From the NCBI GenBank assembly GCA_029942545.1, contig GCA_029942545.1_4114.1: a stretch of 64,000 bases of DNA, one strand, 5' to 3'. Positions 4,380-19,150 of this stretch are shown in pieces. Within the stretch, counting starts at the first letter, position 1; each line of letters begins with the position of its first letter. This DNA comes from a phage. The translations under genes were made by a program, and so were the position numbers. The notes beneath the pieces were generated by a model. That model was not told where the DNA came from, made no database searches, and saw only the letters and a list, made by a program, of their open reading frames with translations.

Positions 4380-4409
4380 ACTTACATCAACCACAAAGAG
4401 GAATACAAA

Positions 4410-4610: not shown

Positions 4611-4619
4611 TAAAATAGT

Positions 4620-4647: not shown

Positions 4648-4677
4648 AGTTTACATCTTAATTAATAAGGAAACATC

Positions 4678-4812: not shown

Positions 4813-4815
4813 GTA

Positions 4816-4843
4816 TTGACAAAGTATCTTAGTACTGTATAAT
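4816..4843 (+). promoter_or_regulatory. sigma70-type promoter (TTGACA-N16-TATAAT)
   Basis: -35 4816-4821, -10 4838-4843; hairpin GAGGGGAA/TTCCCCTC 4858-4876. Confidence 0.6.
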
Positions 4844-4899
4844 AGTTTACATCAAGTGAGGGGAATGGTTCCCCTCCTAACAAAAAGAGAGAAATTAAA

Positions 4900-5223: not shown

Positions 5224-5245
5224 TAGAATCCATTTAAAGTACTAT

Positions 5246-5274
5246 TTGACATTGCCCAGATAGTACTTTATAAT
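5246..5274 (+). promoter_or_regulatory. sigma70-type promoter (TTGACA-N17-TATAAT)
   Basis: -35 5246-5251, -10 5269-5274. Confidence 0.55.
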
Positions 5275-5322
5275 AGACTCTAACTTGTAGTACTAATTAA
5301 CTTAACTAATAGGATGTACACC

Positions 5323-5718
5323 ATGATTACTAAATTCTTCGCTACCCGTGAACAAGCTCGCATCGTTGCCCGTGAAGAAGGTGAAACATTTAAAGACATG
5401 GGCAAAGATGCACCGAAAGGACAACGCTGGGCGGTACAGTTCAAAGAGATCTCTGATATTGTGAATTCACCTGAGCCTGTACTTACAGCAGCAGAACTAA
5501 AGCAAGCTCAAGAACTGGCTGAAGTACTGAACGCTCAAGATGACTTTTTGAAAGGTTCTGATATTGAAGTTACAGTTAACGCAAATGCATGGACTCACGC
5601 GGATCACCTGGCAAACCTTAAGCGTCCAAGTGAACTGATTCGTAACCAGAAAGAGATCCGTCATGACCGTAAAGGAAACCGTGTAACAGTATACAGTAAA
5701 CGCCGCCAGGTTATCTAA
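5323..5718 (+). CDS. hypothetical protein (131 aa)
   Basis: AGGA 5311-5314 is 8 nt upstream of ATG 5323; track ATG 5314 sits too close to the RBS; alternative start 5314. Confidence 0.6.
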   Translation: MITKFFATREQARIVAREEGETFKDMGKDAPKGQRWAVQFKEISDIVNSPEPVLTAAELKQAQELAEVLNAQDDFLKGSDIEVTVNANAWTHADHLANLKRPSELIRNQKEIRHDRKGNRVTVYSKRRQVI

Positions 5719-5741
5719 TAACTTTGCAGTACTAACAACAC

Positions 5742-5766
5742 GGCGGGAACTATTCCCGCCTTTTTT
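5742..5766 (+). terminator. intrinsic terminator
   Basis: GGCGGGAA-CTA-TTCCCGCC followed by TTTTTT. Confidence 0.8.
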
Positions 5767-5780
5767 ATAGGATAAACAAA

Positions 5781-6035
5781 ATGATTAAGGTTCAACTATC
5801 AAACGATAATGTATTACGGGTACACTATAAAGCCCCACAGAGAATCATCACAAAGGCCGTACAGCTTGCTAATGAGTTTATTAATGGTAGTCTATTGCCT
5901 AGGAAGTTAAGCAACGGGAAACTACGTGTTATCGATGTAGACACTAACAATAGAATAGTGATCGAGAGTACTGGAAAAATTAATCTATATGAACACCAAC
6001 AATACAATAAAAAAATAAAACTAATATCACGTTGA
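5781..6035 (+). CDS. hypothetical protein (84 aa)
   Basis: ORF track; weak RBS. Confidence 0.45.
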   Translation: MIKVQLSNDNVLRVHYKAPQRIITKAVQLANEFINGSLLPRKLSNGKLRVIDVDTNNRIVIESTGKINLYEHQQYNKKIKLISR

Positions 6036-6060
6036 CAGTACTCAAATGTTTTAGTATTAT
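6032..6060 (+). promoter_or_regulatory. sigma70-type promoter (TTGACA-N17-TATTAT)
   Basis: -35 6032-6037, -10 6055-6060. Confidence 0.55.
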
Positions 6061-6093
6061 GTATCTATACCAACACAGAGAGAGAGAAACAAA

Positions 6094-6312
6094 ATGAAAT
6101 TATCTAAAATCGAAAAGAAAACTATTGATGAAGCAGTGAAGCACGGTTATACCTTTCGTAATGATTCACACTTCACTAGTTTTCAACAGGGAAACCGTAC
6201 CATCAAAAAACTCATTGATAAAGGTTTACTCACTAAGGTTGATAACGGGAACGGTGTAGAATATCAACCGACAGAAGACGCATTATCACTAAAGAAATAT
6301 TCTATTATCTAA
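6094..6312 (+). CDS. hypothetical protein (72 aa)
   Basis: ORF track; leader duplicated before the next gene. Confidence 0.55.
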   Translation: MKLSKIEKKTIDEAVKHGYTFRNDSHFTSFQQGNRTIKKLIDKGLLTKVDNGNGVEYQPTEDALSLKKYSII

Positions 6313-6341
6313 TTGACAGTACTCAAATGTTTTAGTACTAT
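6313..6341 (+). promoter_or_regulatory. sigma70-type promoter (TTGACA-N17-TACTAT), duplicate of 6032-6060
   Basis: same 17-nt spacer GTACTCAAATGTTTTAG as the upstream promoter. Confidence 0.5.
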
Positions 6342-6369
6342 GAATGCATACCAACACGGGGAAAACAAA

Positions 6370-6597
6370 ATGATTACTTTAGAAAAACGTATCAAAGAGA
6401 CTACCACGCTGGTGGAACTGTTAACCGTTCTTAAATGCCGGGTAACTCCATTCAGTACACCGGACTTTATCAACATGGTGGACGTTAACGGTCGCTATCG
6501 TATTGCGGTCGAACAAGGTACGGCAAAAGTATTCAGTACTAAAAATACGCGTGAAGTATTCCACGCAGTTCAAGTAAAAAAAAGTAGTTGCCATTGA
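6370..6597 (+). CDS. hypothetical protein (75 aa)
   Basis: ATG 6370 with leader CGGGGAAAACAAA; track start 6313 lies inside the promoter. Confidence 0.55.
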   Translation: MITLEKRIKETTTLVELLTVLKCRVTPFSTPDFINMVDVNGRYRIAVEQGTAKVFSTKNTREVFHAVQVKKSSCH

Positions 6598-6644
6598 TAG
6601 TAAAGTACTGTAATATAGTTTCATTAACTCAAGGAGTCAACACA

Positions 6645-7229
6645 ATGCGTAACTATACTAAATTCATCCGTTCACTTCATGCAATGGAAACCAACAAAGA
6701 GATCCTTTCAGCTTGTCGGTTAGCTGGACTGGAGATCGTCGGTGCGGGTTCTTCCCGTATTGTATTCGCTTTAAATGATCGGTTAGTGATTAAGGTCGCG
6801 AATTGTGATGCGGGTGTAGAACAAAATGAAACTGAATGTAAGGTATGGAATTTTTTAGATTATGACCGTCCGCACCTTAAACAGTTCTTTGCTAAAGTGC
6901 ATATGCATTTATGCGATCCTGATAATCTGTTTATTGTTATGGATCGTTTGAGTACTGCAAGCAAAGGCAGTGTAAAGCATGTAAACGCGTGCAATGAGTT
7001 AAAGTACAATATTAAACGTAACACTATTGAACGCCATCACCATTTCGCTGATGCTCTCAATCACGTTGATGATACATTATCCACACTAACGATAAGAGAT
7101 ATCAGAAAACAGAATATCGGCCAGGATCGCAACGGCTTGATTAAAGTACTTGATTACGGTTTAACCCGCAATATCTGGAATCAGTACTATAAAAAACGTG
7201 ATGTTAATGCGATAACTATAACACGATAA
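6645..7229 (+). CDS. protein-kinase-like protein (putative Ser/Thr kinase)
   Basis: Gly-rich loop IVGAGSSRIVF, VIKV lysine, catalytic-loop-like RDIRKQNIG, DYG in place of DFG; RBS AAGGAG before ATG 6645. Confidence 0.55.
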   Translation: MRNYTKFIRSLHAMETNKEILSACRLAGLEIVGAGSSRIVFALNDRLVIKVANCDAGVEQNETECKVWNFLDYDRPHLKQFFAKVHMHLCDPDNLFIVMDRLSTASKGSVKHVNACNELKYNIKRNTIERHHHFADALNHVDDTLSTLTIRDIRKQNIGQDRNGLIKVLDYGLTRNIWNQYYKKRDVNAITITR

Positions 7230-7237
7230 AAAAGATT

Positions 7238-7398
7238 AAAAAAGGGATTGACTCCAGTCAGTCCCTTTGCTATTATATATTCATTGAGAGATAACTCACT
7301 GACCCATAGGGTGCGGAAGTGTATCTATTATATAAGTATTCAGTACTGAAAACTATTTGATAAAAAGTACTTGCAAACTATCTCAATGAGCGTATAAT
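7238..7398 (+). repeat. intergenic cassette R, copy 4
   Basis: hairpin GGGATTGAC-TCCA-GTCAGTCCC 7244-7265; box ACCCATAGGGTGC 7302-7314; promoter TTGCAA-N16-TATAAT 7371-7398. Confidence 0.6.
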
Positions 7399-7453
7399 GT
7401 TTTATATCGAGAGGGGGAAATGGTTCTCCCTGGTACTAAAAGGAATCAAGACG

Positions 7454-7675
7454 ATGACTACTATGACCTGCGTTCACGCTTCAAATCTTCTGAATGATGC
7501 AGCATTTAAAGCAGGTGAAGAATATCAATGCTATCGGGATGAAAATAAAAAAGTTTTCGTCGTTGATGCTAACGGTTTCCATATTGAATTACAATCCGGC
7601 TTCACTGGTGTTGATGGTAAATCAGTATGGGGCGTACAGGATGATAACGGTACATATCATTTTAAACGTAATTAA
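7454..7675 (+). CDS. hypothetical protein (73 aa)
   Basis: ATG 7454 preceded by AAAGGAA; track start 7397 is upstream, before the leader hairpin. Confidence 0.55.
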   Translation: MTTMTCVHASNLLNDAAFKAGEEYQCYRDENKKVFVVDANGFHIELQSGFTGVDGKSVWGVQDDNGTYHFKRN

Positions 7676-7678
7676 GTA

Positions 7679-7706
7679 TTGACAAAGTATATCAGTACTG
7701 TATAAT
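7679..7706 (+). promoter_or_regulatory. sigma70-type promoter (TTGACA-N16-TATAAT)
   Basis: -35 7679-7684, -10 7701-7706; hairpin 7719-7737. Confidence 0.6.
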
Positions 7707-7759
7707 AGTTTACATCAAGGGGAGAATAGCTCTCCCCACCAATAAAAGGAAACAAAATT

Positions 7760-8032
7760 ATGTCCAGCTACTCCGCTACTATGATTATTAAAGATATGAA
7801 CGGTAATCCTACTTCTGCTGGTGGATCATTTGGTAACATTAACTTAGATGGTCGGTTATCAATTGAATCAGCCATCAATGCCGCGAAAGAAGTTTTTAAG
7901 AATGAATGTACTGTAAGCAAGCTGGATTATATGGGCTTCGCTATCGAGAAAACTAATCGTTTTGTGGACTACAAAAAACCACTGATGATTGATACTAACC
8001 TGAAAGCAAACGAAGTGGAATACTTATTATGA
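7760..8032 (+). CDS. hypothetical protein (90 aa)
   Basis: ORF track; RBS AAAGGAAA. Confidence 0.6.
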   Translation: MSSYSATMIIKDMNGNPTSAGGSFGNINLDGRLSIESAINAAKEVFKNECTVSKLDYMGFAIEKTNRFVDYKKPLMIDTNLKANEVEYLL

Positions 8033-8220
8033 CAGTAGAAGAAGTTAAAAAAGTACTGGCAGTACTACGCTATCATAATCATTGTAAGGTGAAGAATGAT
8101 CCTGATTATCTTGATTCATCGCTGGAAGAGGATACACTACAAGCAATAAGCCATATGCAAAAAATGCTTAAGCGTATGACCGAAAAGAACAGGCCGGACT
8201 ATATCGGAAATAAAATTTAA
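8029..8220 (+). CDS. hypothetical protein (63 aa)
   Basis: ATGA overlap with upstream gene. Confidence 0.5.
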   Translation: MTVEEVKKVLAVLRYHNHCKVKNDPDYLDSSLEEDTLQAISHMQKMLKRMTEKNRPDYIGNKI

Positions 8221-8227
8221 AAAGTAC

Positions 8228-8255
8228 TTGCATTGTAAGTAAAACAAAGTATAAT
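8228..8255 (+). promoter_or_regulatory. sigma70-type promoter (TTGCAT-N16-TATAAT)
   Basis: -35 8228-8233, -10 8250-8255. Confidence 0.55.
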
Positions 8256-8303
8256 GTTTTGCATAGGGGGAGATATCCTCCCCCACTAATAAGGAGTACT
8301 AAA

Positions 8304-8528
8304 ATGGCTAACTTTGATGAACTGATGCGGGAAGTAGCTACCCTGGCAGAAGAGAAGAAATCATTTGATTCTATCTATAACACCGCTTACAGTGATTCAG
8401 TACTGGCATGTACTCAGGATCAAAAAGATGAACTGATCGCCACCTATCATGAAGCATGGAAGTACTACCGCCAATGGGAGAAAGAAGAAAGCGAGTCTAC
8501 CATCAACGGCATCAATAATCTAATCTAA
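8304..8528 (+). CDS. hypothetical protein (74 aa)
   Basis: ATG 8304 with RBS AAGGAG; track start 8259 falls in the leader hairpin. Confidence 0.55.
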   Translation: MANFDELMREVATLAEEKKSFDSIYNTAYSDSVLACTQDQKDELIATYHEAWKYYRQWEKEESESTINGINNLI

Positions 8529-8602
8529 AGTTTTATTTCAGTACTATTGACAATGCGTGATAGTACTGATGTGATAACTTTACTAACTAAAGGGGAAACA
8601 TA

Positions 8603-8860
8603 ATGGAACAGTTTAAAACGTATCGGGTAAATCCAATCGCTACAGCCTACGTAGAAGACCATAAAACATTACCAGTACAGACACCAATCAAAGGCCGTAT
8701 CTATCGTGCTATGCAGTGGAATAACGCCTATAATGGCTATAAAGCGGTAGCGGCTGCAATGTACTTAGGGGATGGCGAATGGTTTGATCCAAATAATCCT
8801 GGTGCACTCGATAGTACTGAACAAATGACATGGGCCGACTATATCGAAGATATTTCATAA
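8603..8860 (+). CDS. hypothetical protein (85 aa)
   Basis: ORF track; RBS AAGGGGAAA. Confidence 0.6.
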   Translation: MEQFKTYRVNPIATAYVEDHKTLPVQTPIKGRIYRAMQWNNAYNGYKAVAAAMYLGDGEWFDPNNPGALDSTEQMTWADYIEDIS

Positions 8861-8867
8861 AAACTAT

Positions 8868-8895
8868 TTGACAGTACTACAAGATAATGTATAAT
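8868..8895 (+). promoter_or_regulatory. sigma70-type promoter (TTGACA-N16-TATAAT)
   Basis: -35 8868-8873, -10 8890-8895. Confidence 0.55.
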
Positions 8896-8948
8896 GTTTT
8901 ACATAGAGCGGGGGAATAGTTCTCCCGCACCTTTAGGAGTAAAACATT

Positions 8949-9149
8949 ATGTCAATCGCTAACGAATTGGTTGCAGTACTGAATGAAGCAAAAGCCAACT
9001 GCATCGATGTACAGATCAAAGAGCTTGGCAATGGCTTGATCGGCTGTACTTGTACAGTGCAAACGGCTACCGATTATCGGGAAGTGGAATCACTCGAATC
9101 ACTGGTACGGTATATTAAAATCCTGGTAGAAGATTGGAGAATCATCTAA
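8949..9149 (+). CDS. hypothetical protein (66 aa)
   Basis: ORF track; RBS TAGGAG. Confidence 0.55.
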   Translation: MSIANELVAVLNEAKANCIDVQIKELGNGLIGCTCTVQTATDYREVESLESLVRYIKILVEDWRII

Positions 9150-9162
9150 CAAAAAAGAATAA

Positions 9163-9352
9163 AAAAAAGGGATTGACTCCGGTCAGTCCCTTTGCTATTA
9201 TATACGCATAGACAAAAACTAGCCCACAGGGTGCAGAGAAGTATCTATAAGATAGTTAATAACGGTGAGTAACTATCTGCTGGTGGATGTAATGCCAGTA
9301 CTCAAAACTATTTCAAAAAAGTATTGACAAAGTATATCAGTACTGAGATAAT
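9163..9352 (+). repeat. intergenic cassette R, copy 5
   Basis: hairpin GGGATTGAC-TCCG-GTCAGTCCC 9169-9190; box AGCCCACAGGGTGCA 9221-9235; promoter TTGACA-N17-GATAAT 9324-9352. Confidence 0.6.
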
Positions 9353-9406
9353 GTATCTCGTAGGGCGGCAATAGTGCAGCCCACCTCCAAAAGAGCGAGA
9401 TATAAA

Positions 9407-9622
9407 ATGGCGTTAACCAAACAAGAAATTATCGACCGTATCAAAGAGTCAACTGGCTGGTATGTTGGGGACCGTTTAATTGTTAAAGTTCTCGATTATT
9501 CAAATAATCCTCTTGCACCGGAACCAGTGGCATACAAATTATCCTGGATATCTGCGTTTAGCGGTAAGCGTGAAAGATGTGTGTACTATCCGAACACAGT
9601 CGGGCTACAGTTCTGTAAATAA
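9407..9622 (+). CDS. hypothetical protein (71 aa)
   Basis: ATG 9407 after leader; track start 9374 lies in the leader hairpin. Confidence 0.55.
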   Translation: MALTKQEIIDRIKESTGWYVGDRLIVKVLDYSNNPLAPEPVAYKLSWISAFSGKRERCVYYPNTVGLQFCK

Positions 9623-9640
9623 ATTTTAATAGAAAAAGTA

Positions 9641-9669
9641 TTGACAAAGTATATCAGTACTGCAATAAT
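9641..9669 (+). promoter_or_regulatory. sigma70-type promoter (TTGACA-N17-AATAAT), duplicate of 9324-9352
   Basis: promoter and leader (GTAGGGCGGCAAT...) duplicated for two consecutive genes. Confidence 0.5.
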
Positions 9670-9722
9670 GTATCTCGTAGGGCGGCAATGGTGCGACGGC
9701 CCACAAAGTTAGGAGATTCACC

Positions 9723-10049
9723 ATGAGTACTTCAATCGCTATCGTTAAAGCTTTCATCCGTACCAATTTCGACCGCATTACTGTTGATGGTAATGATCGG
9801 GAAGTAGAATACTCTTTCATTGTTGCACAAACCGCAAACGGTGCACGCTATATCTTAAACGATAGTGAAGCTAACCACTACTTCTATAATAAAGGATTAC
9901 ACTACATCCCTAGCGAAGTAGTCTACAGTAAGATGAATAAGCTGGTAGACAAGATTAACGCTAAAGGTACTATCGATTTACAGTACTGGACCGAAACCGA
10001 TCCAGAATACGGATCACATCGTTACCTGAATCCAGGAATTAAAATGTAA
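9723..10049 (+). CDS. hypothetical protein (108 aa)
   Basis: ORF track; RBS AGGAG. Confidence 0.6.
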   Translation: MSTSIAIVKAFIRTNFDRITVDGNDREVEYSFIVAQTANGARYILNDSEANHYFYNKGLHYIPSEVVYSKMNKLVDKINAKGTIDLQYWTETDPEYGSHRYLNPGIKM

Positions 10050-10056
10050 AAAGTAC

Positions 10057-10084
10057 TTGCATTGTACTTAGAATCAAGTATAAT
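10057..10084 (+). promoter_or_regulatory. sigma70-type promoter (TTGCAT-N16-TATAAT)
   Basis: -35 10057-10062, -10 10079-10084; leader hairpin follows. Confidence 0.55.
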
Positions 10085-10138
10085 GTTTTACATAGAGAGG
10101 GGGAAATGGTTCTCCCTCCTAAATTAAGGAGTTTTATC

Positions 10139-10540
10139 ATGACCTTCTCAATCACTTCCTTCGCTGACGTTTTAGTACTGGCTCGGACTTTTGGTAAAGA
10201 TGCACTGGAGTACGCTGTAAGTAATGGTACTCTCCAACCGGAACAATGCCGCATCATTGGAAACTGCAAACGTTGGGCGGTATCCAATACTATTGCACTA
10301 GAAAACTTCAACGATGGTAACAATGAGTATTCAGTTGATGCAGTATTCGAAGCCGTTGATCTTGGCGGTATCTATAACACTAACCTAAATGATGTGCGTA
10401 TCGTTCGCACGGGGTTCGGTGCTTATGATGTATCTATCCGTGAAGCTATGAACACCGGATACATTAGTAAGGACTTACTTGCTCACATCATGCAGCTATG
10501 GACGGAACGTAACGAAGCACGCACTATCTTAGGACTATAA
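10139..10540 (+). CDS. hypothetical protein (133 aa)
   Basis: ATG 10139 with RBS AAGGAG; track start 10106 is inside the leader hairpin. Confidence 0.6.
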   Translation: MTFSITSFADVLVLARTFGKDALEYAVSNGTLQPEQCRIIGNCKRWAVSNTIALENFNDGNNEYSVDAVFEAVDLGGIYNTNLNDVRIVRTGFGAYDVSIREAMNTGYISKDLLAHIMQLWTERNEARTILGL

Positions 10541-10564
10541 GCATTACACATCACCAAACATCAT

Positions 10565-10584
10565 AGGCCGCTCTCTAGCGGCCT
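10565..10584 (+). terminator. hairpin, possible terminator or 3' stabiliser
   Basis: AGGCCGCT-CTCT-AGCGGCCT perfect 8-bp stem; weak U tract. Confidence 0.4.
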
Positions 10585-10608
10585 TAACTATATCAGGAGG
10601 GCATACAT

Positions 10609-10818
10609 ATGTTCTATACAGTATACAGCGTTCTAGGTACGATTGCTGGCGTACATGATAATGTCAGTGATGCTATGCGTACAGTACTGCAACAGGTTCC
10701 ACTAAAGCCTAAGACCATTAAGCAGATGACAGCACGACTAACCAGGGCGACGGCTGGCGTGGAAGTATGGCAGGACTATGGGGATACACAGATAATCGTA
10801 AGCGTAACGAAGGATTAA
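10609..10818 (+). CDS. hypothetical protein (69 aa)
   Basis: ORF track; RBS AGGAGG. Confidence 0.55.
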   Translation: MFYTVYSVLGTIAGVHDNVSDAMRTVLQQVPLKPKTIKQMTARLTRATAGVEVWQDYGDTQIIVSVTKD

Positions 10819-11067
10819 TGCGTAAAAGGATTTAGTACTGATTCAGAAAAAAGTCAAGGCGTTTTTAAAATTATGCGTTAAAAAAATGCATAGGTAATCC
10901 CTTGACTTTTTTGAAATAAAAGGGATTGGACTATGGCAAAATGCGTAGGGGGCTAAAGGGCGGGTAACCTTAGCGACTTCGATAAAGGGGTATTACGAAT
11001 AAAATGTTATTGACTTTTTATATGAATCGTATAAAATATGATCGATAATAATTTTAAGGGAGTCCCT
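10817..11067 (+). promoter_or_regulatory. non-coding junction with iteron-like ATGCGT(A/T) repeats and a 13-bp inverted repeat
   Basis: ATGCGTA at 10818, 10941, 11068 and ATGCGTT at 10873; AAAAAAGTCAAGG 10847-10859 is the reverse complement of 10900-10912. Confidence 0.4.
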
Positions 11068-11265
11068 ATGCGTATTTTAACTAAAGAACAGCACCACGAA
11101 AGACTTATCAATAACATGGCTATGATAATGTATAAGTCCCATGACCGTGGTATTGCCTATAAGCGTGAATTAATTATGGCACTATTCATTGGAACTAACT
11201 TTCAGGAAAGGTATGTCAACGATTGGATTTGGTATTTAATTGAAGATATAACGAGTAAACTATGA
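11068..11265 (+). CDS. family A small paralog (LGTNYQ-motif protein)
   Basis: motif FIGTNFQERYV; RBS AAGGGA; first member of the tandem array. Confidence 0.65.
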   Translation: MRILTKEQHHERLINNMAMIMYKSHDRGIAYKRELIMALFIGTNFQERYVNDWIWYLIEDITSKL

Positions 11266-11462
11266 AAATGCGTATTTTAAATAAAGAAGAATATCAATCA
11301 CTGTTACGTAAAAACTTCACAAAGATTTATAATACAGACACACACGTAGAACGAATGGAGTTATACCTTTTGATTACATTGGGAACAAACTATCAGGGTA
11401 GATGGGTGTGGCAATATATGGATACATTGAAAAATAAAATATTGTCCACGAGGAAACAATGA
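11262..11462 (+). CDS. family A small paralog
   Basis: motif LGTNYQGRWV; ATGA overlap. Confidence 0.65.
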   Translation: MKMRILNKEEYQSLLRKNFTKIYNTDTHVERMELYLLITLGTNYQGRWVWQYMDTLKNKILSTRKQ

Positions 11463-11668
11463 AAACTATAACACGAACCCAATCATACGGTCTTATCTTG
11501 AAATACATGGACTTAATGGTGGATATCAGCAAAGACCTGCCTAAAACTGAAATTGAAGTTGCAAGAGCAGAGATCCGCATGTTGGCTGTACTGAACACAA
11601 ACCATCAGGAAGATTATGTTGAAGAATGGATTCGATTTTTAATTCAAGATATAAAGAGTAAATTATGA
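11459..11668 (+). CDS. family A small paralog
   Basis: motif LNTNHQEDYV; ATGA overlap. Confidence 0.65.
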   Translation: MKTITRTQSYGLILKYMDLMVDISKDLPKTEIEVARAEIRMLAVLNTNHQEDYVEEWIRFLIQDIKSKL

Positions 11669-11880
11669 TTATTATAGAAAACTCATATCAATATACTGAA
11701 CGCATCGCTGCCAGACAACTTGAAATCCTCATAATATACGAAGAGACTTCTGATTTAAACTTAGCCGAGGTATTGGAAAATGAAATACTTTTGGGTGCAT
11801 TCTTGGGAACAGACTATCAGGAGTATTATGAGGAAAAGTATTTGTCATCTCTTGAGAAATACATCAGGAGCAAATTATGA
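11665..11880 (+). CDS. family A small paralog
   Basis: motif LGTDYQEYYE; ATGA overlap. Confidence 0.65.
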   Translation: MIIIENSYQYTERIAARQLEILIIYEETSDLNLAEVLENEILLGAFLGTDYQEYYEEKYLSSLEKYIRSKL

Positions 11881-12089
11881 TTATATTAACACCTGAAGAA
11901 TATAAGAAACGTTTTAATTCTGTCCAGACTGAAATATTACTTATATACCTTTCAAATGCAGACCTTAACTTATCAAGGGCAATGGAGAAGGATTTACTTA
12001 TGGGTGCATTTTTGGATACAGACTTTCAGGTGTATTATGTAGGGGAATACTTAATTGCACTCCAGAATTACATTAGGAGTAAACTATGA
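11877..12089 (+). CDS. family A small paralog
   Basis: motif LDTDFQVYYV; ATGA overlap. Confidence 0.65.
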   Translation: MIILTPEEYKKRFNSVQTEILLIYLSNADLNLSRAMEKDLLMGAFLDTDFQVYYVGEYLIALQNYIRSKL

Positions 12090-12304
12090 AACATTTAAGT
12101 AATATTGAGAAGATGAGAATTATCATTGATGCATTAAACAAATACGATACCCTTTTACAAATAAAAGGTTTAACTCGATTGGAACACAAGATAAACACCA
12201 CCGATGTACGCATGTTGGCTGTACTGGGGACGAACTTTCAGGAAGAGTATGTTGTTGCACACATAGTTGCCCTCACTGATCTAATAAGGGACAAATGTAA
12301 ATGA
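12086..12304 (+). CDS. family A small paralog
   Basis: motif LGTNFQEEYV; ATGA overlap. Confidence 0.65.
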   Translation: MKHLSNIEKMRIIIDALNKYDTLLQIKGLTRLEHKINTTDVRMLAVLGTNFQEEYVVAHIVALTDLIRDKCK

Positions 12305-12558
12305 AACACTTAACTGATGATGAATTTGAAACTATAATTCGTAAACTAACCCCCATCACAAGGATAGTCTACGGTGACCCCAGCCTTACATGGAACCAAA
12401 TGCGAGCTAAAGTTAATGAGCTATGGTTGCTGTACTTTATGGGGACTCAATATCAAGATAAGTTTTGCACAGAATATATCGAACAATTAACGAATGTTAT
12501 ACAGGATAAACTAGATGATTATTTGCTCACAAAACATGAAGACTTTATCAGGAGTTGA
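12301..12558 (+). CDS. family A small paralog
   Basis: motif MGTQYQDKF; ATGA overlap. Confidence 0.65.
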   Translation: MKHLTDDEFETIIRKLTPITRIVYGDPSLTWNQMRAKVNELWLLYFMGTQYQDKFCTEYIEQLTNVIQDKLDDYLLTKHEDFIRS

Positions 12559-12787
12559 GTATCAAACTGCCCTATTCTCTTTAATCCATACCCTTAGAAA
12601 AAACAATGCCTTACATGGTGCACCTGAAGTGGATGTTATCAACGGTGAACTTTATCTTATGAAATTCATTGGAACAAACTATCAAGATCTGTTCATTCAA
12701 CGATACTTATCCGCATTAAGAAACCAAATCCAATATAAAACCATCAAGGCCAAAAAAGAATGGAATAAACAATGCGACACAGACTAA
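12536..12787 (+). CDS. family A small paralog
   Basis: motif IGTNYQDLF; start uncertain (12515 or 12536), overlaps upstream gene. Confidence 0.55.
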   Translation: MKTLSGVEYQTALFSLIHTLRKNNALHGAPEVDVINGELYLMKFIGTNYQDLFIQRYLSALRNQIQYKTIKAKKEWNKQCDTD

Positions 12788-13020
12788 ATCACAAAATGTA
12801 TTGTAAACTATTGCAGACACTGGCACAGAAACACTATGACACGGTATCTGAAATATTACCCTATGATATCATGCGTTTACTTCACTGTGAGGCCGAGATG
12901 CTTGTACTGATGACAGGCACTGATAAAACAGCAATCGCCAGATCGATAGAGCAATATATTGATGCACACTGCCAACACATGAGAACCGAAATCTGGAGGA
13001 AAGAGAATGATAATTCTTAA
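12772..13020 (+). CDS. family A small paralog (divergent)
   Basis: same size and position in array; motif degenerate (MTGTDKTAIA). Confidence 0.55.
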   Translation: MRHRLNHKMYCKLLQTLAQKHYDTVSEILPYDIMRLLHCEAEMLVLMTGTDKTAIARSIEQYIDAHCQHMRTEIWRKENDNS

Positions 13021-13222
13021 TGAGTATCAGTATCATTGGAGGTTACAAACTATCAAATCAAAAGTGTATAGTATTGTGTTAAACAAATCTATTGCACAAG
13101 AGGACAAATGTGTTATAATAGCTGAAATGAAGTTGGGTGTATTCGTAGGGACAAACTATCAAAACATCTACACTGACGTATTATTAAGTTCCTTACGTAA
13201 CAAGGTGGTATCCAAAATATGA
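13007..13222 (+). CDS. family A small paralog
   Basis: motif VGTNYQNIY. Confidence 0.65.
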   Translation: MIILNEYQYHWRLQTIKSKVYSIVLNKSIAQEDKCVIIAEMKLGVFVGTNYQNIYTDVLLSSLRNKVVSKI

Positions 13223-13437
13223 GAAATTTACAAGGCTTTGAATACATCAGACTCCTGAAAACATGTGGAAGGAGAAGGAGAATGATATCAAGCGATAAGA
13301 GCATCCAAGCTAACCTTAAGCACGCACTAGTAACTGAACTCTATGTAGGTGCACTCTTAGGCACAAACTATCAACAAATGTATGTAGAACTATGGATTGA
13401 CGCTCTACAGAAAGAGGTTAAAAGTAAATGCAAATGA
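13219..13437 (+). CDS. family A small paralog
   Basis: motif LGTNYQQMYV; ATGA overlap. Confidence 0.65.
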   Translation: MRNLQGFEYIRLLKTCGRRRRMISSDKSIQANLKHALVTELYVGALLGTNYQQMYVELWIDALQKEVKSKCK

Positions 13438-13646
13438 TTAATTTAAGTAAAGACGAATTTTATGTTATACTGGCGAAAACTTATCCAGCACGTAAGGCCG
13501 TTTATGATAGTCACATTATTGAACCCTCAAAGAAGTTGATTTTAGTAAATGAGATAAAGATGCTTTCAGTCTTAGGAACAAACTATCAAGAGAATGCTGT
13601 ACTGATGTTAATTGATGCCCTCCAGCGAGAGGTTAAACGTAAATGA
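13428..13646 (+). CDS. family A small paralog
   Basis: motif LGTNYQENAV. Confidence 0.65.
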   Translation: MQMINLSKDEFYVILAKTYPARKAVYDSHIIEPSKKLILVNEIKMLSVLGTNYQENAVLMLIDALQREVKRK

Positions 13647-13873
13647 AAATGATTAATTTAACTTACCATGAATATCAAAAACGTTTAAATGCATCCAGAG
13701 ATATAAGGATTCAAATATTCAATAACAAAAGATTGAAGCCTGATATCAGGAAAATCAAAATCATAGAAGCCGTGTTGTGCAACTTCCTAGGGACTAACTA
13801 TCAGGAAGGTAAGGTAGAAAACTATCTTATAGAACTCATGAATAGTATTGAAAATAAATGTAAGGGTAATTAA
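13643..13873 (+). CDS. family A small paralog
   Basis: motif LGTNYQEGKV; ATGA overlap. Confidence 0.65.
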   Translation: MKMINLTYHEYQKRLNASRDIRIQIFNNKRLKPDIRKIKIIEAVLCNFLGTNYQEGKVENYLIELMNSIENKCKGN

Positions 13874-13874
13874 C

Positions 13875-14114
13875 ATGAAAATGATTAAATTATCTCAAGC
13901 AAAATATAAAGAACGCCTGGTGAAAATTGCACCTGGACTTAATGAAATCCATCACGGAGAAGTCATTAAACACGGAAATAAGATGATTAAGAAACTTGAG
14001 TTAAAGGTGGGTGCATTCATAGGAACAAACTATCAGGAGTATTATGTAGATGAATACATAATCGCACTTAAGAGATACATTGGAAGAAAACTATATCTAC
14101 AAACTAAAGAATAG
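13875..14114 (+). CDS. family A small paralog
   Basis: motif IGTNYQEYYV; ATG 13875 chosen by homology (MKMIKL); track start 13848 is upstream. Confidence 0.6.
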   Translation: MKMIKLSQAKYKERLVKIAPGLNEIHHGEVIKHGNKMIKKLELKVGAFIGTNYQEYYVDEYIIALKRYIGRKLYLQTKE

Positions 14115-14137
14115 TATTGAAAATAAATGTGAGGTTG

Positions 14138-14407
14138 ATGAACATGCAAATGATCAATTTAAGTAAAGATGAATATACCGAGCGTATGACAAAAATTACG
14201 CACAAACGTAATACAATCTATCACAACCCAGAAATTCAACACAGTAAGAAAATGATTATGATGCGTGAGTTAAAGATGGGTGTATTCTTAGGAACAAACT
14301 ATCAAGATACAGAAGTAAATCGCTTAATCGCGGAGTTACTACTGGAAATCAGAGGTAAGCTGTACTTTCATCAAATGACCCAACCACTGAGGTGTACTAA
14401 GAAATGA
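14138..14407 (+). CDS. family A small paralog
   Basis: motif LGTNYQDTEV; GAGGT RBS 8 nt before ATG 14138 (alternative 14144); track start 14117 is TTG. Confidence 0.6.
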   Translation: MNMQMINLSKDEYTERMTKITHKRNTIYHNPEIQHSKKMIMMRELKMGVFLGTNYQDTEVNRLIAELLLEIRGKLYFHQMTQPLRCTKK

Positions 14408-14619
14408 TCAACATCACATTGCAAGAAAGATTCATCCGAATCAACTATGCAATTACCAAATTAGATGCTACTATAGGATTCCAAAGTCTACCATACAAAA
14501 CCAGATTGTTATTAGAGTGTGAAGCTAAGTTGGGTGTACTGTTAGGGACGCAACACCAACAACGATATGTGGAAATCTGGATTGACCTTTTAACCCAAAA
14601 TATATATGAGAGAATGTAA
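14404..14619 (+). CDS. family A small paralog
   Basis: motif LGTQHQQRYV; ATGA overlap. Confidence 0.65.
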   Translation: MINITLQERFIRINYAITKLDATIGFQSLPYKTRLLLECEAKLGVLLGTQHQQRYVEIWIDLLTQNIYERM

Positions 14620-14850
14620 ATGCAAAATGAAATGATATACTTAACGAATGAAGAATTTCAAGAGAAGATGTTAAAAACCAAAAACATTACTCTTAAGTTC
14701 GTTCCAAATCAATCAATATCTGAAGTATCTGCAAATGTATTGTTTCAGAAGCTACCATACGTTCTTGGAACTGATAAACAAGAATTTATGGTTCAAAATA
14801 TGATTGAACATCTTATAATGAGTATTAAGGAAAAAGTTAATGCAAAATGA
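14620..14850 (+). CDS. family A small paralog
   Basis: motif LGTDKQEFMV. Confidence 0.65.
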   Translation: MQNEMIYLTNEEFQEKMLKTKNITLKFVPNQSISEVSANVLFQKLPYVLGTDKQEFMVQNMIEHLIMSIKEKVNAK

Positions 14851-15094
14851 AATGATATACTTAACCTATAATGAATACGTCGAGAGATTAGTTCGTGCCA
14901 AGAGATATACCAATAAACGTCCAATTGACCTAAACCAAACCCCAGCAGAAAGGAGTGCAGAAGTATTATTCCAATCACTACCATATCTTCTGGGAACTGA
15001 TAGACAAGAGGAATATGTTGCACGTATGATTAGATATCTTAAAATCACTATTAAGGAAAAAGTAAATGCAAATGAAATACTTAACAGACGATGA
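14840..15094 (+). CDS. family A small paralog
   Basis: motif LGTDRQEEYV; N-terminus MQNEMIYLT duplicated from the previous gene. Confidence 0.65.
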   Translation: MQNEMIYLTYNEYVERLVRAKRYTNKRPIDLNQTPAERSAEVLFQSLPYLLGTDRQEEYVARMIRYLKITIKEKVNANEILNRR

Positions 15095-15317
15095 GTTAAA
15101 AGAACGACTAATTAAATCAAGAAAACATACAAATCAACTTCCAAACGACACAAACAAGTCTCCAGCGGAAAGGAGTGCAGAAGTTTTATACATTCAACTC
15201 ATGTACTTTCTTGGCACTGACAGACAAGAGTATTACATTGAAAGTATGCTTCGATATCTTAAATTCTCTATAAAGGAAAAGATACATGATCAAGTATTTA
15301 AAAATCCTAACAGTTAA
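15066..15317 (+). CDS. family A small paralog
   Basis: motif LGTDRQEYYI. Confidence 0.65.
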   Translation: MQMKYLTDDELKERLIKSRKHTNQLPNDTNKSPAERSAEVLYIQLMYFLGTDRQEYYIESMLRYLKFSIKEKIHDQVFKNPNS

Positions 15318-15528
15318 TGAATATCATAAGATTGTAATGAAAACTAATAGTGATTACGCTAAAAAATCAAACCCAAAGTACATACTGGAACACACATTTG
15401 AAGAACGTCAATTAGCTTTAGTTGAAGCAAAACTTCTTGCACTATTAGGAACAAACTATCAGGAAGAATACAATAGAAAACTAATATACCTTTTAACTAA
15501 ACATATAAGAAAAAGAAAAAATGCATGA
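15286..15528 (+). CDS. family A small paralog
   Basis: motif LGTNYQEEYN. Confidence 0.65.
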   Translation: MIKYLKILTVNEYHKIVMKTNSDYAKKSNPKYILEHTFEERQLALVEAKLLALLGTNYQEEYNRKLIYLLTKHIRKRKNA

Positions 15529-15755
15529 AACACTTGACAGATGATGAACATGGGCTTATAGTAATGGATGTAATCAACATCGAATACAAAAAGTTGATAC
15601 GCTATCGTTGTTATGAAGATAAGCAACTCGTTCTAGCAGAACAGAAGTTGTTTCGACTCTTAAACACAAACTTCCAAGCACAATACGAAGAATCGTATAT
15701 GTACCTTTTGGCGAGGAAAGCAAAAAGAGATTATGAAAATTTTAAGCAAAGGTGA
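15525..15755 (+). CDS. family A small paralog
   Basis: motif LNTNFQAQYE; ATGA overlap. Confidence 0.65.
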   Translation: MKHLTDDEHGLIVMDVINIEYKKLIRYRCYEDKQLVLAEQKLFRLLNTNFQAQYEESYMYLLARKAKRDYENFKQR

Positions 15756-15954
15756 TTCAGTAATATTACTTATAGAGAGTTCAAGTAAATTCTTAAACAT
15801 AACACTGTCTGATATAGATGAAGATGATAAAGAAGTACTGAGAGCAGATTTAAGAGTACTGTTACATATCGGAACAAACCTACAAGAAGAATATGTAGAG
15901 TGCTACATCAATGAACTTAAAGAATCAGTACTGAGAAAATGCAAATGCAAATGA
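15733..15954 (+). CDS. family A small paralog
   Basis: motif IGTNLQEEYV. Confidence 0.65.
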   Translation: MKILSKGDSVILLIESSSKFLNITLSDIDEDDKEVLRADLRVLLHIGTNLQEEYVECYINELKESVLRKCKCK

Positions 15955-16172
15955 AAATCATTACCGATGTAGAATACCTAACAATCATAAATGGACTGTT
16001 TTTGAAGCTCTTCGTCATTAACACATCAGATATACCAGATATGGATAAAATTATTAAGAGAAATGAAGTCTATGTTCTAGCTACCCTTGGAACGAACTAT
16101 CAAGAACACGACATTAAAGATTATATTAATACACTTAAACGAGCTATTGAACTAAAATGCCAAAACCACTAG
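15939..16172 (+). CDS. family A small paralog
   Basis: motif LGTNYQEHDI. Confidence 0.65.
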   Translation: MQMQMKIITDVEYLTIINGLFLKLFVINTSDIPDMDKIIKRNEVYVLATLGTNYQEHDIKDYINTLKRAIELKCQNH

Positions 16173-16372
16173 GAACAGCAGAATACATTGAACTCATGGG
16201 ATTACACTTCTCATCCTTTCAGAAACTTATGCGAGAATCAAAGAATGATTTAGAATATACCATCAGAGGTTCCGATTTAAGAATGCTTCTCACCCTAGAC
16301 ACAGATTCCCAAGAGCGATTTGTCAATGAGCATATTAGAGCACTTTTAATGGAAATTAAAAGTAAACTATGA
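16157..16372 (+). CDS. family A small paralog
   Basis: motif LDTDSQERFV. Confidence 0.65.
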   Translation: MPKPLGTAEYIELMGLHFSSFQKLMRESKNDLEYTIRGSDLRMLLTLDTDSQERFVNEHIRALLMEIKSKL

Positions 16373-16584
16373 AGATAATATCAAACCAAGAGTACTTGGC
16401 ACTATTCAGGAAGAATAATCACAAATATATGGCACTTGATTCAAGAACTGATATAAGTGAACTTGAAAAAAATCTTTTGCGTTCAGATATGATAGTACTG
16501 ACACTCTTAGGAACACAGCATCAAGAGAGAACTGTTAATTCATACATAGGTATTCTTATACAGATAGTACAGGAAAAGATATGA
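16369..16584 (+). CDS. family A small paralog
   Basis: motif LGTQHQERTV; ATGA overlap. Confidence 0.65.
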   Translation: MKIISNQEYLALFRKNNHKYMALDSRTDISELEKNLLRSDMIVLTLLGTQHQERTVNSYIGILIQIVQEKI

Positions 16585-16802
16585 GAATCATAACACAACA
16601 AGATATTCTTAAGTTCACAAGGGTTCATGCATCTGAATTTGATGCTATATTATCAAAAAGTTACAACAACCCTTATACAGAAGATGTACACTACAATGAA
16701 TTATGGATGTATATACTTTTAGGTACAAATAAGCAAGAGCAAGCCGTACAGAAGTATTTGACAGCTTTACGTGATGCTACAGCTAATGGAGTATGTGTTT
16801 AA
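16581..16802 (+). CDS. family A small paralog
   Basis: motif LGTNKQEQAV; ATGA overlap. Confidence 0.65.
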   Translation: MRIITQQDILKFTRVHASEFDAILSKSYNNPYTEDVHYNELWMYILLGTNKQEQAVQKYLTALRDATANGVCV

Positions 16803-16803
16803 T

Positions 16804-17046
16804 ATGAAAGTACTGACAGAACTAGAAATGTATCATAGATTTAATAAGTACTATCATTTACTTAAACCTATACAGAGGATTAAGTGTCCCTTTGTAGTGA
16901 AACAGGTATTAATTTATGAGCATAAGTTATTTGTATCATTAGGTACGAATGAACAAGAGTATTATTTGAAGTTGTACTTGATTACATTAATAGATTTAAT
17001 TCACTATAAAACCAAACAAGCTAATAAAGAGAAATATGAAAACTAA
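16804..17046 (+). CDS. family A small paralog
   Basis: motif LGTNEQEYYL; ATG 16804 directly after upstream stop; track start 16771 is upstream. Confidence 0.6.
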   Translation: MKVLTELEMYHRFNKYYHLLKPIQRIKCPFVVKQVLIYEHKLFVSLGTNEQEYYLKLYLITLIDLIHYKTKQANKEKYEN

Positions 17047-17377
17047 TATTCAACTCAATGTATACAGTTCAGAAGAACATACATATATAAAATGCAGTCT
17101 ATGTAAAGATGTAATGGACTACAAGGGTAAGCCATTCACAATTACTTATGATTCTTATGTTAATGATTTATATATATCATTTCTTAATTACGAAAAGAAA
17201 ATATACAAGCACGTTGATATTAAAGATTTAAGTACTTTATCAGCAGAGGAATACTTTCAGGAATCGTTAGTATGGGATTTGGAGTTTCCTATGCCATTAG
17301 TACACAAAATGGTGGTCCTAATGAAAGAAGCTAAACCGGAGTTTAATGGTTATGAAGAACACATTATTGAGTACTGA
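17036..17377 (+). CDS. family B paralog (FQxS-motif protein)
   Basis: motif SAEEYFQESLVWD; first member of the array. Confidence 0.65.
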   Translation: MKTNIQLNVYSSEEHTYIKCSLCKDVMDYKGKPFTITYDSYVNDLYISFLNYEKKIYKHVDIKDLSTLSAEEYFQESLVWDLEFPMPLVHKMVVLMKEAKPEFNGYEEHIIEY

Positions 17378-17388
17378 TACAAATTATC

Positions 17389-17417
17389 TTGACAGTACGG
17401 TAAGGTAGTGCTATAGT
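17389..17417 (+). promoter_or_regulatory. sigma70-type promoter (TTGACA-N17-TATAGT)
   Basis: -35 17389-17394, -10 17412-17417. Confidence 0.55.
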
Positions 17418-17457
17418 ACTTTCACATTTAATGTACGTTCAATAAAGGGTAGATATT

Positions 17458-17703
17458 ATGTTAAATTTTTTAAATTTCCTTATCGTCTTGTGTATTGTTC
17501 TTGGAATTGCACCGTTTGTATTAGCGTATCTGGATTCAGATGAAATGCAGAAGATGAATTGCACAAAGACAGGACAGAGTAGAGAAGAGACGGTTATGAT
17601 GCCTGTAACGGTTATTGTGAATAACATACCAATTACGAACATGATTCCTACCCTAACGACAACGTACCAGTACTCTTGTGCAGACGGAGAGAGGTGGAGA
17701 TGA
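17458..17703 (+). CDS. small membrane protein (81 aa)
   Basis: hydrophobic N-terminus LNFLNFLIVLCIVLGIAPFVLAYL; own promoter. Confidence 0.55.
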   Translation: MLNFLNFLIVLCIVLGIAPFVLAYLDSDEMQKMNCTKTGQSREETVMMPVTVIVNNIPITNMIPTLTTTYQYSCADGERWR

Positions 17704-18020
17704 AATTTAATATAGCAAAAACATCTAATGTATGTATATTTGGTTATGCTGATGAGTTAGGTGATCTTGACATTCTATTGTACAAAAAGGATGGTGTTAT
17801 GCATTTCAAGTACCAGGATGAAGAGGCAGACAATTATCCTTTACCTAATTTAGTACAAATGCAGGAAGAGGAATTATTCCAGTACAGCTTAGTATATGAC
17901 ATTGATATTTGCACGATGCCAGTACTAATTAATATTCAAAAAGTGATGCTCGATGTGTTTGATAGGCTAATACAAGGCACACAAGGAAGAACCATATATG
18001 TCAATGTACAAGACAATTAA
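17700..18020 (+). CDS. family B paralog
   Basis: motif QEEELFQYSLVYD; ATG 17700 overlaps upstream stop (ATGA); track start 17676 is upstream. Confidence 0.6.
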   Translation: MKFNIAKTSNVCIFGYADELGDLDILLYKKDGVMHFKYQDEEADNYPLPNLVQMQEEELFQYSLVYDIDICTMPVLINIQKVMLDVFDRLIQGTQGRTIYVNVQDN

Positions 18021-18213
18021 TCAAGAATGGAAGACCCAAAAGTACAGGGAATTCAGTACTAGTTTAACAAAAGATGAATTGAATTTAAAAAGAACAGAGT
18101 TTGATATGTTTATTTTTCTTGGAACACGTTCACAGGAACAATACATTCATTATTATATAAGTTCATTGCGAACGGAGATCGTATGCAAAACACAGGGTAT
18201 TATAAAAAAGTAA
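17998..18213 (+). CDS. family A small paralog (interspersed in family B array)
   Basis: motif FLGTRSQEQYI. Confidence 0.6.
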   Translation: MSMYKTINQEWKTQKYREFSTSLTKDELNLKRTEFDMFIFLGTRSQEQYIHYYISSLRTEIVCKTQGIIKK

Positions 18214-18449
18214 ACCAATATTTGTACGCATCGAAGTACAGGGATTTTTGTTTAAAGGGTGGTGATGAAGATTTTTCTTTGCGATTATCAGAATTTAATC
18301 TGTTATTTTATCTTGGTACATCGGAACAAGAAGAAATGGCACAGAAATTTATCAAGCACCTTGAACAAAAAATTCATATGCAAATTTTGATGCTTAAGGT
18401 ACATAATGAGATAAACAAATATGAACCCAACAATAGTACAGGATCTTAA
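18183..18449 (+). CDS. family A small paralog (interspersed)
   Basis: motif YLGTSEQEEMA. Confidence 0.6.
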   Translation: MQNTGYYKKVNQYLYASKYRDFCLKGGDEDFSLRLSEFNLLFYLGTSEQEEMAQKFIKHLEQKIHMQILMLKVHNEINKYEPNNSTGS

Positions 18450-18810
18450 ACAAGTAATATTCCTTTTGAATACAAGAAGTGAAATGTATACAGAGTTTAA
18501 AGAGATTAATGCATTTTATCAGAATTTTGTAATTCAAGAGTTCAGTGATTTAATTACAGATGCATTATTTGAATTATCGGAAAAATACAAAGGAACAGAG
18601 TTCAGTGTTAAAAATGTATTACGTTCTTTATCAACGCGTATAATAAAATTAGATCATTTTACATTTGACAATAAAGATTTATTCAGTCACAATCCAAGTA
18701 CAGCTTTATATTTTATTCCTGATTCAGACAAAAATCATCCTATTCATTACGGATGGATTTTGTCGTACATAGTACAAGGAAAGGAGTATCCTATTAAATG
18801 GAACGATTAG
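18421..18810 (+). CDS. hypothetical protein (129 aa)
   Basis: ORF track; no family motif. Confidence 0.5.
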   Translation: MNPTIVQDLKQVIFLLNTRSEMYTEFKEINAFYQNFVIQEFSDLITDALFELSEKYKGTEFSVKNVLRSLSTRIIKLDHFTFDNKDLFSHNPSTALYFIPDSDKNHPIHYGWILSYIVQGKEYPIKWND

Positions 18811-18958
18811 GGCGATTAGATTATTACACAATTAATACAAATTATTTGTTGCGTAATATAAAATCCGATTACAAAATATGGATAAAGAACAGAGATAGTA
18901 TGTGTTATGAATTTTATTTAGATTATGCCATCAAACGCTTTTTAAGAGAAGAACATTA

Positions 18959-19150
18959 ATGCACACCACGCACACAGAGCACAAAAATACAAAAACGATA
19001 AATGTTTTAAATGATTCTTTATTGGTGAGTATAAATTTATATTATAAAATTCATTTAAATGGTGGTATTGAAAATTTTAGTTATTATTTGAGTACAATAT
19101 CGCAAGAGCATTTAATATACCAAGATCATTTATTGCACCCGAATCCATAA
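18959..19150 (+). CDS. hypothetical protein (63 aa)
   Basis: ORF track; no RBS seen. Confidence 0.35.
   Translation: MHTTHTEHKNTKTINVLNDSLLVSINLYYKIHLNGGIENFSYYLSTISQEHLIYQDHLLHPNP

Follow-up and report, generated by a model that had tools for sequence, protein, structure and literature searches.

A packed array of 27 diversified small paralogous genes beside the predicted terminal-repeat boundary of an Asteriusvirus jumbo coliphage

The 64,000-nucleotide stretch of phage DNA analyzed here (GenBank assembly GCA_029942545.1, contig GCA_029942545.1_4114.1; the whole stretch is called the window below) carries a run of 27 back-to-back open reading frames (ORFs) on the + strand, which extends in the ORF listing from 11038 or 11068, depending on the start codon chosen for the first gene, to 17046. 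All of these ORFs are small (65-91 amino acids depending on the start codon, 65-87 amino acids with plausible starts) and we refer to their products as family A. When positions 11000-19000 of the window were compared with phage records by megablast, 36 records matched and all of them were Asteriusvirus genomes, that is, Escherichia or Salmonella jumbo phages such as 121Q, PBECO4, phAPEC6, and Sharanji. The top match was SHEFM2K (96% identity) and, judged from these alignments, the window derives from an Asteriusvirus jumbo coliphage of the 121Q/PBECO4 group. In the Asteriusvirus records, the genes under the match are all labelled 'hypothetical protein'.

Family membership was quantified with a hidden Markov model (HMM), which was built from an alignment of 29 family A sequences (A1) and run against all six-frame ORFs of the window. 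Here, we found 31 members, the 27 genes of the array and four outlying ones. An earlier reading of the same DNA, made without database searches (the sequence-only reading), had described 27 consecutive small ORFs as tandem paralogs of one family and had named a total of 31 members. Both counts were recovered by the HMM search, and the kinship of the members is supported by the alignment, the HMM and matches to PHROGs. In A1 one T is invariant, Q and one L are conserved in at least 90% of the sequences, and the consensus reads M..L...EY......E......LGTN.QE.YV...I..L...I..K. A strict regular expression for the motif matched 27 times in the three + frames (26 matches within 11-18.4 kb, one in the 31.4-kb member), each time within a family A gene, and not once in the three - frames across the whole 64 kb. 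The N-termini, which had been described as variable, do not vary freely and follow a moderately conserved pattern, M-x-x-L-[TS]-x-x-E-[YF].

The members, all on the + strand, are listed here with their coordinates and their HMM scores in bits. Gene 1 (11068-11265, 69.0) encodes 65 amino acids, has an alternative ATG at 11038 and carries the Shine-Dalgarno (SD) sequence TAAGG upstream; genes 2 (11262-11462, 65.2) and 3 (11459-11668, 76.0) each follow with an ATGA overlap. Gene 4 (11665-11880, 66.3) codes for the most acidic member (net charge -8) and is followed by gene 5 (11877-12089, 71.0), by gene 6 (12086-12304, 75.7), which is without an ortholog in 121Q, and by gene 7 (12301-12558, 85.0). 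An alternative ATG at 12515 is available for gene 8 (12536-12787, 66.6). The product of gene 9 (12772-13020, 65.0) is divergent and shows in the alignment a 6-residue insertion in the motif and a replacement of its Q by T. Gene 10 (13007-13222, 76.5) has the SD sequence GGAGG, and genes 11 (13219-13437, 83.9), 12 (13434-13646, 79.7; alternative ATG 13428), 13 (13643-13873, 83.6), 14 (13875-14114, 85.2; 79 amino acids), 15 (14144-14407, 82.8), and 16 (14404-14619, 71.6) lead to the middle part of the array. Here, genes 17 (14620-14850, 72.9), 18 (14840-15094, 76.8), 19 (15066-15317, 82.0), 20 (15286-15528, 71.7), 21 (15525-15755, 58.6), and 22 (15733-15954, 73.5) are located. The array is completed by genes 23 (15951-16172, 78.0; alternative ATG 15939), 24 (16157-16372, 65.6), 25 (16369-16584, 74.2), 26 (16581-16802, 72.3), and 27 (16804-17046, 72.6; alternative GTG 16771). 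Two of the outlying members, genes 28 (17998-18213, 73.8) and 29 (18183-18449, 64.9), follow shortly afterwards. The other two are gene 30 (31099-31317, 26.6, E 2.3e-7), which is divergent and reads VGSNKQD at the motif in its translation, and gene 31 (31295-31486, 40.1, E 1.5e-11), which reads LGTQYQE.

Among the 26 junctions of the array we counted 14 ATGA overlaps, eight overlaps of 11-32 nt and four gaps of 0-29 nt. The claim that nearly all junctions are ATGA overlaps was therefore too strong. SD-like matches of at least 4 nt were found upstream of 20 of the 27 starts, compared with 38% at random positions, and they often lie within the conserved C-terminal codons of the preceding gene.

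Family A paralogs share on average 25% of their amino acids (range 11-57%), 42% of their nucleotides and 34% of their third codon positions, and in the columns where Leu, Gly, Thr, Gln, or Ile is conserved, two to five different codons are in use. We then compared the window genes with ungapped orthologs in five relatives and calculated the ratio of nonsynonymous to synonymous substitution rates (dN/dS, omega). In the annotated frame the pooled ratios amounted to 0.21-0.44, and in the two shifted frames values of 0.98-1.9 were obtained. When omega was resolved by alignment column, the family-conserved columns gave 0.17 and the columns that vary between paralogs gave 0.39; therefore, the private residues of each paralog are also maintained. 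All copies of family A are genuine protein-coding genes, and purifying selection acts on each of them.

These data bear directly on the explanation that the array is a degenerate nucleotide tandem repeat or another DNA element, in which the ORFs are incidental. The regular period of about 215 bp alone speaks for such an element. Tandem Repeats Finder, however, detected no period of about 215 bp in the array, and the low identities at the nucleotide level and at third positions, the mixed synonymous codons, the absence of the motif from the minus strand, the frame-specific dN/dS ratios and the SD-like sequences before most starts all argue against it. We consider this explanation refuted by the codon diversity, the negative repeat search and the frame-specific dN/dS, and the probability that we leave to it is negligible. 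The objection that the motif might be a nucleotide-level repeat conserved out of frame, which had been raised together with the first description of the array, does not hold either, since conservation is specific for the frame and no tandem repeat is present.

The closest paralogs adjoin each other in the array (genes 17 and 18, the closest pair, 57% identity; 18 and 19, 51%; 4 and 5, 49%; 14 and 15, 44%), and beyond adjacency there is little effect of distance. Judged from its divergence, the array is an ancient diversified family and not a recent amplification. The expression extreme gene amplification, which had been used for the locus, is appropriate in that the copy number is unusually high, but it is misleading in that the copies are old, diverged and individually under purifying selection.

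To the same family belong 87 matches, all of 52-122 amino acids, that were obtained in an exhaustive profile search of 1.84 billion representative proteins. We also searched for relatives among 50,697 phage records, in part by tblastn with concatenated distant family A members as query, and found family A in 36 Asteriusvirus genomes and in 10 genomes of Klebsiella Alcyoneusvirus (RaK2/K64-1 type); beyond these two genera no family A was found in these records. RaK2 carries about 13 members, which lie scattered across 42 kb in twos and threes. Some RaK2-like members have two domains (P0151, P0143, RaK2 12001-12366 and 15645-15992), with a C-terminal extension of about 50 amino acids for which Pfam and PHROGs gave no match. 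The array architecture recurs in a metagenomic contig (L014).

The number of genes in the main array ranges from 23 to 29 over nine genomes: 23 in 121Q, 27 in the window, SHEFM2K, ph0011, and SD-1_S14, 28 in phAPEC6, fEgEco12, and BF17, and 29 in PBECO4. This bears out the suggestion that the copy number varies between isolates. The array of CMSTMSU (MH494197.1, 'UNVERIFIED') is fragmented by apparent frameshifts, which probably are sequencing errors and not biology, and thus this genome was left out of the counts. In the divergent JNE01 we found 11 + 6 family A genes plus singles. Here the whole set is replaced by other paralogs, almost every one of which is only 30-70% identical to any window paralog, whereas its repeat-side flanks are 72-98% identical. 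Ortholog identity forms a mosaic, with values of 31-100% for a single pair of genomes; the order of genes 4 and 5 is the reverse of that in 121Q, and individual members are kept at 75-100% identity across several species. The picture that these comparisons suggest is an old expansion by local duplication, which would have been followed by continued birth, loss, and replacement of members.

Upstream of the array lies a junction of about 250 bp, which had been described as a regulatory junction. A predicted promoter is located there, and the edge of the direct terminal repeat falls within the junction as well. For fEgEco12 the termini have been confirmed experimentally and its direct terminal repeats comprise 20,993 bp (PMC13070987). 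The right physical end of this genome ('...GGGCGGGTAACCT') aligns to window position 10970, and thus window 1-10970 would correspond to the inner half of a terminal repeat of about 21 kb. By this homology the boundary is placed at GGGTAACCT|TAGC, at about 10970 (10962-10975, + strand), within the 13-nt motif GGGTAACCTTAGC, which shows no variation among seven Asteriusvirus genomes, the divergent JNE01 being one of them. GGGTAACCTTAGC is a candidate end-generation or terminase recognition site, and to have the repeat boundary tied to 13 invariant nucleotides helps in annotating and engineering these phages. Another invariant block, AGGGATTGGACTATG, is located at about 10923-10937. In PBECO4 (2980-3345) and BF17 (2535-2900) an extra 366-nt gene with its own promoter separates the repeat boundary from the first gene of the array; the window is without this gene.

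The predicted promoter of the array (11010-11037, + strand) starts 40 bp past the repeat boundary. It is sigma-70-like (TTGACT-16 nt-TAAAAT, 10 of 12 positions matched) and conserved in relatives, its -35 hexamer and the T-rich stretch that follows being invariant in seven of them. Inside the array, no credible + strand terminator was found, and a sigma-70-like sequence with 11 of 12 matches is located within gene 21 (15534-15562). The next strong sigma-70-like promoter in the promoter scan (TTGACA-17 nt-TATAGT, with TG) lies downstream of the array at 17389-17417 on the + strand and would mark where the following unit starts. Since the junctions measure at most 29 nt, no internal terminator is seen and SD-like sites precede the genes, one operon with translational coupling is the simplest reading, and we infer that the array is transcribed as one unit behind the single upstream promoter. 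A gene for a 113-residue protein of another family, superfamily B (17036-17377, + strand; phrog_13866; unrelated to family A), overlaps the terminal part of gene 27 and probably closes this transcription unit. The sequence-only reading had also proposed one long operon free of internal promoters. Packing, the conserved promoter, the lack of a credible terminator and the distance to the next strong promoter are in line with the operon, but its second part has to be qualified by the match in gene 21.

For structural information, we modelled the product of gene 14 with AlphaFold2 using the alignment of its paralogs. The model reached a predicted local distance difference test (pLDDT) score of 96.3 and a predicted template modelling (pTM) score of 0.82 and consists of three helices (residues 8-27, 33-47, and 54-78) together with a one-residue bridge of the N-terminal segment to T51. 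According to this model, family A proteins are predicted to fold as autonomous soluble three-helix bundles. The helix-like C-terminal stretch that had been recognized in the letters of the DNA falls into helix 3. When column entropy was compared with the model, the low-entropy columns were mostly hydrophobic with a/d-like spacing in each helix and the high-entropy columns were exposed positions, so that the conserved positions of the family make up the hydrophobic core and the turn between helices 2 and 3. The LGTNYQE motif is located at this turn, where L49-G50 end helix 2 and T51-N-x-Q54-E55 begin helix 3. In the model helix 2 seems to be C-capped by L-G and helix 3 to be N-capped, or provided with a capping box, by T..Q/E, and under the general rules of helix capping the motif would be structural and not an active site. 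The net charge of the members ranges from -8 to +8 and their isoelectric point (pI) from 4.3 to 9.9. Three-helix bundles of about 60-70 amino acids with a conserved core and variable helix surfaces are familiar as binder scaffolds from the domains of staphylococcal protein A and from engineered affibodies. Family A is likewise predicted to be a small three-helix bundle, and its variable helix surfaces could confer binding specificity.

The database searches did not assign a function to the family. In PHROGs, phrog_4148 was matched by 28 of 29 members (best E 2e-26) and phrog_28039 by 14 of 29 (best E 4e-40), and neither of the two is functionally annotated. There was no significant match of family A in Pfam, NCBIfam, or the defence families of PADLOC. 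A profile search of PDB sequences gave nothing significant; its best match, L-aspartate oxidase, had an E-value of 0.53 and was dismissed as noise. A fold search of PDB found no relative, and a search of BFVD found none beyond family A itself. No sequence or structural homolog among known anti-defence, anti-CRISPR, or defence components was detected in Pfam, PADLOC, NCBIfam, PDB, and BFVD. Neither a helix-turn-helix fold nor a match to a helix-turn-helix profile was seen for family A.

Our reading of the locus has two parts, which we hold with different confidence. We are highly confident of the descriptive part, according to which family A represents one small protein family that has expanded in a lineage-specific manner and is kept under purifying selection in a packed array. 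For the functional part we tentatively favour diversified binders of host or defence targets that are expressed early, and we put its chances somewhat short of even. On this proposal, host sigma-70 RNA polymerase would transcribe the array early, from the promoter 40 bp inside the unique region by the left terminal repeat, and the translation of adjacent genes would be coupled. About 30 proteins would result, which share one minimal scaffold and present very different surfaces (pI 4.3-9.9), and each of them might bind a different partner in the infected cell, be it a host protein, a defence component or a protein of a competitor phage. The array would add to the takeover module that the terminal repeat encodes, and the exchange of members from one isolate to the next would be the mark of an arms race. 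A more far-reaching version, in which the locus is a natural 'binder library' of about 30 three-helix scaffolds, made together from the first operon beyond the terminal repeat and each neutralizing a different host factor or defence system, with member turnover setting the host range, is conceivable but seems doubtful to us. In this version one fold would have become a pan-immune-evasion arsenal, and the locus would be a convenient supply of small and specific inhibitors for E. coli proteins.

Several observations weigh against the functional part. The promoter of the array falls short in strength of the consensus promoters within the repeat, which makes the timing of array expression uncertain. 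The confident fold needs the alignment of the paralogs; a single-sequence run on P0001, in which two neighbouring paralogs are naturally fused by read-through and which was modelled as a crude test of paralog packing, gave a pLDDT of 41 and was uninformative. The omega of family A (about 0.33) is just modestly above the pooled value of the flanking genes (0.21), and thus the family evolves somewhat faster than its neighbours and yet is clearly constrained. A strong arms race might leave a signal of pervasive positive selection, and this was not seen, with omega staying under 1 in each class of columns, although omega from pooled pairs has little sensitivity for positive selection.

Instead of acting on the host, the paralogs may serve the phage's own processes, either as a hetero-oligomeric scaffold, in which for instance acidic members might pair with basic ones, or as small regulators or DNA- or RNA-binding factors for replication or transcription. 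Members of acidic and of basic character are interspersed in the array, many of the members having a pI above 9, co-transcription with translational coupling would yield near-stoichiometric output, and every copy is under purifying selection. Moreover, Iyer et al. proposed transcription-factor or DNA-binding roles for the zinc-ribbon expansion of about 35 copies in phage G (PMC7824862). Such a function is plausible, yet it fits poorly with the free turnover of members and we regard it as unlikely. Still less probable is that the array is functionless filler, that is, redundant copies with at most a dosage effect, which arose by tandem duplication after capsid enlargement as in the ratchet model of Hua et al. 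That the closest paralogs are neighbours and that the copy number varies without obvious cost would fit with filler. However, the identity of 25% and the diversity in charge exclude dosage of one activity, omega is well below 1 for each copy, also at paralog-specific positions, with values of about 1 or more in the shifted frames, and orthologs are kept at 75-100% identity across several species. Genome growth at this locus appears to have proceeded via old, individually selected paralogs and not via neutral filler.

The chances are slimmer again for the family A proteins being packaged internal or ejected proteins as in T4, which are delivered together with the DNA. The internal proteins of T4 have an N-terminal capsid-targeting sequence in common, the loci for internal proteins of the T4 type consist of small genes in hypervariable arrays, and the N-terminus of family A is moderately conserved (M-K-x-L-T-x-x-E-Y). 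An inner body has been described for phAPEC6 (PMC7247149), which counts for this explanation as well. In the same study, 62 proteins were identified in the virion proteome by mass spectrometry, and although a protein of 4.7 kDa was detectable there, none of the 62 was a product of gp467c-gp489c, the family A orthologs of phAPEC6 (PMC7247149). On this ground a reading as virion proteins was rejected. In addition, the N-terminus is modelled as a part of helix 1 and of the beta-bridge, not as a detachable tag, and the promoter belongs to the early sigma-70 class and not to a late one.

Our preferred reading, early binders of host or defence targets, finds its closest parallel in SPO1. This phage carries about 25 small early genes at or near its long terminal repeat, with strong host-type promoters, ribosome-binding sites and operon organisation, and their products each act on different host targets (RNA polymerase, HU, ClpC, cell division; PMC6873191). 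The repeat side of the window looks alike. In its first 10 kb (1-10970) about 30 small genes are found, and in nearly all cases a TTGACA-16/17-TATAAT promoter lies in front, which is perfect or almost perfect and takes the form TATTGACAAAGTATATCAGTACTGTATAATAGTTTACAT. A GNAT acetyltransferase (2739-3095) passes the curated cut-off in Pfam (E 8e-10), and a weak protein-kinase-like ORF (6588-7229; E 1.6e-3, under the cut-off) carries a kinase-domain label in ph0011. Both are candidate host-modifying early enzymes. With the array next to a repeat that holds small promoter-bearing genes, a GNAT and a kinase-like ORF, the locus resembles SPO1's module for host takeover. The likeness has limits: family A adjoins the repeat and begins 40 bp outside of it, the SPO1 genes are mutually unrelated whereas the array repeats one fold about 30 times, and no sequence similarity of family A to any characterised family was found.

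In the repeat region we also observed a second repeated promoter-like element, AGGGATTGACTCCGGTCAGTCCCTTTGCTATTATATA, of which four copies are present (411, 4106, 7248, and 9173). In this element, an imperfect hairpin (GGGATTGA...TCAGTCCC) encloses the -35 hexamer. A search of the whole window with Rfam gave no match.

Tandem paralog arrays near genome termini, with variable copy number and roles in host range or immune evasion, are also known from large eukaryotic DNA viruses as multigene families and 'genomic accordions', such as the K3L amplification of poxviruses and MGF110/360 of African swine fever virus. The copies of these accordions are recent and near-identical, whereas the family A paralogs are ancient and individually constrained, and viruses and hosts are unrelated. 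Closer in kind is the small zinc-ribbon family of phage G, which is expanded to about 35 copies (PMC7824862). Both cases are lineage-specific expansions of small proteins in jumbo phages and have been read as tandem duplication (PMC7824862, PMC5646251), but the family of phage G is a zinc ribbon and family A is predicted to be all-helical and has almost no cysteines. Paralogs make up about 10% of the RaK2 proteins, as the authors of that genome noted (PMC3622015). Paralogs in 121Q were remarked on in 2017 without coordinates (Hua et al., PMC5646251). This remark may refer to the family A array or to superfamily B, which starts at 17036; the copies of family A, with 25% identity, are not 'very similar', as the remark has it. 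The literature on Sharanji, phAPEC6, fEgEco12, RaK2, and CBB and an overview of jumbo phages do not cover function, expression, or essentiality of family A, a phage Tn-seq preprint deals with other phages, and in the literature found neither a structure nor an expression class is assigned to the family. Thus, the phenomenon is familiar to specialists for jumbo phages, its copy number and selection pattern are striking, and its function is inferred. If the proposed function is true, about 30 inhibitors or modulators that act on E. coli or its defence systems, all uncharacterised and all built on a scaffold of about 70 residues, would be encoded here, and the locus would offer a compact system for studying effector diversification, the host range of jumbo phages and new small protein inhibitors.

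Downstream of the array, superfamily B extends over window 17036-45428 and comprises at least 35 members of 100-225 amino acids (36 iterative profile hits, compared with none in shuffled controls). Homology between families A and B was considered and rejected, since hhalign gave a probability of 0.2. Together, the two families fill about 35 kb, and RaK2 has a similar run of ORFs of about 190 amino acids. A further paralog family, with four members of 91-103 amino acids, is located at 52495-53904 of the window.

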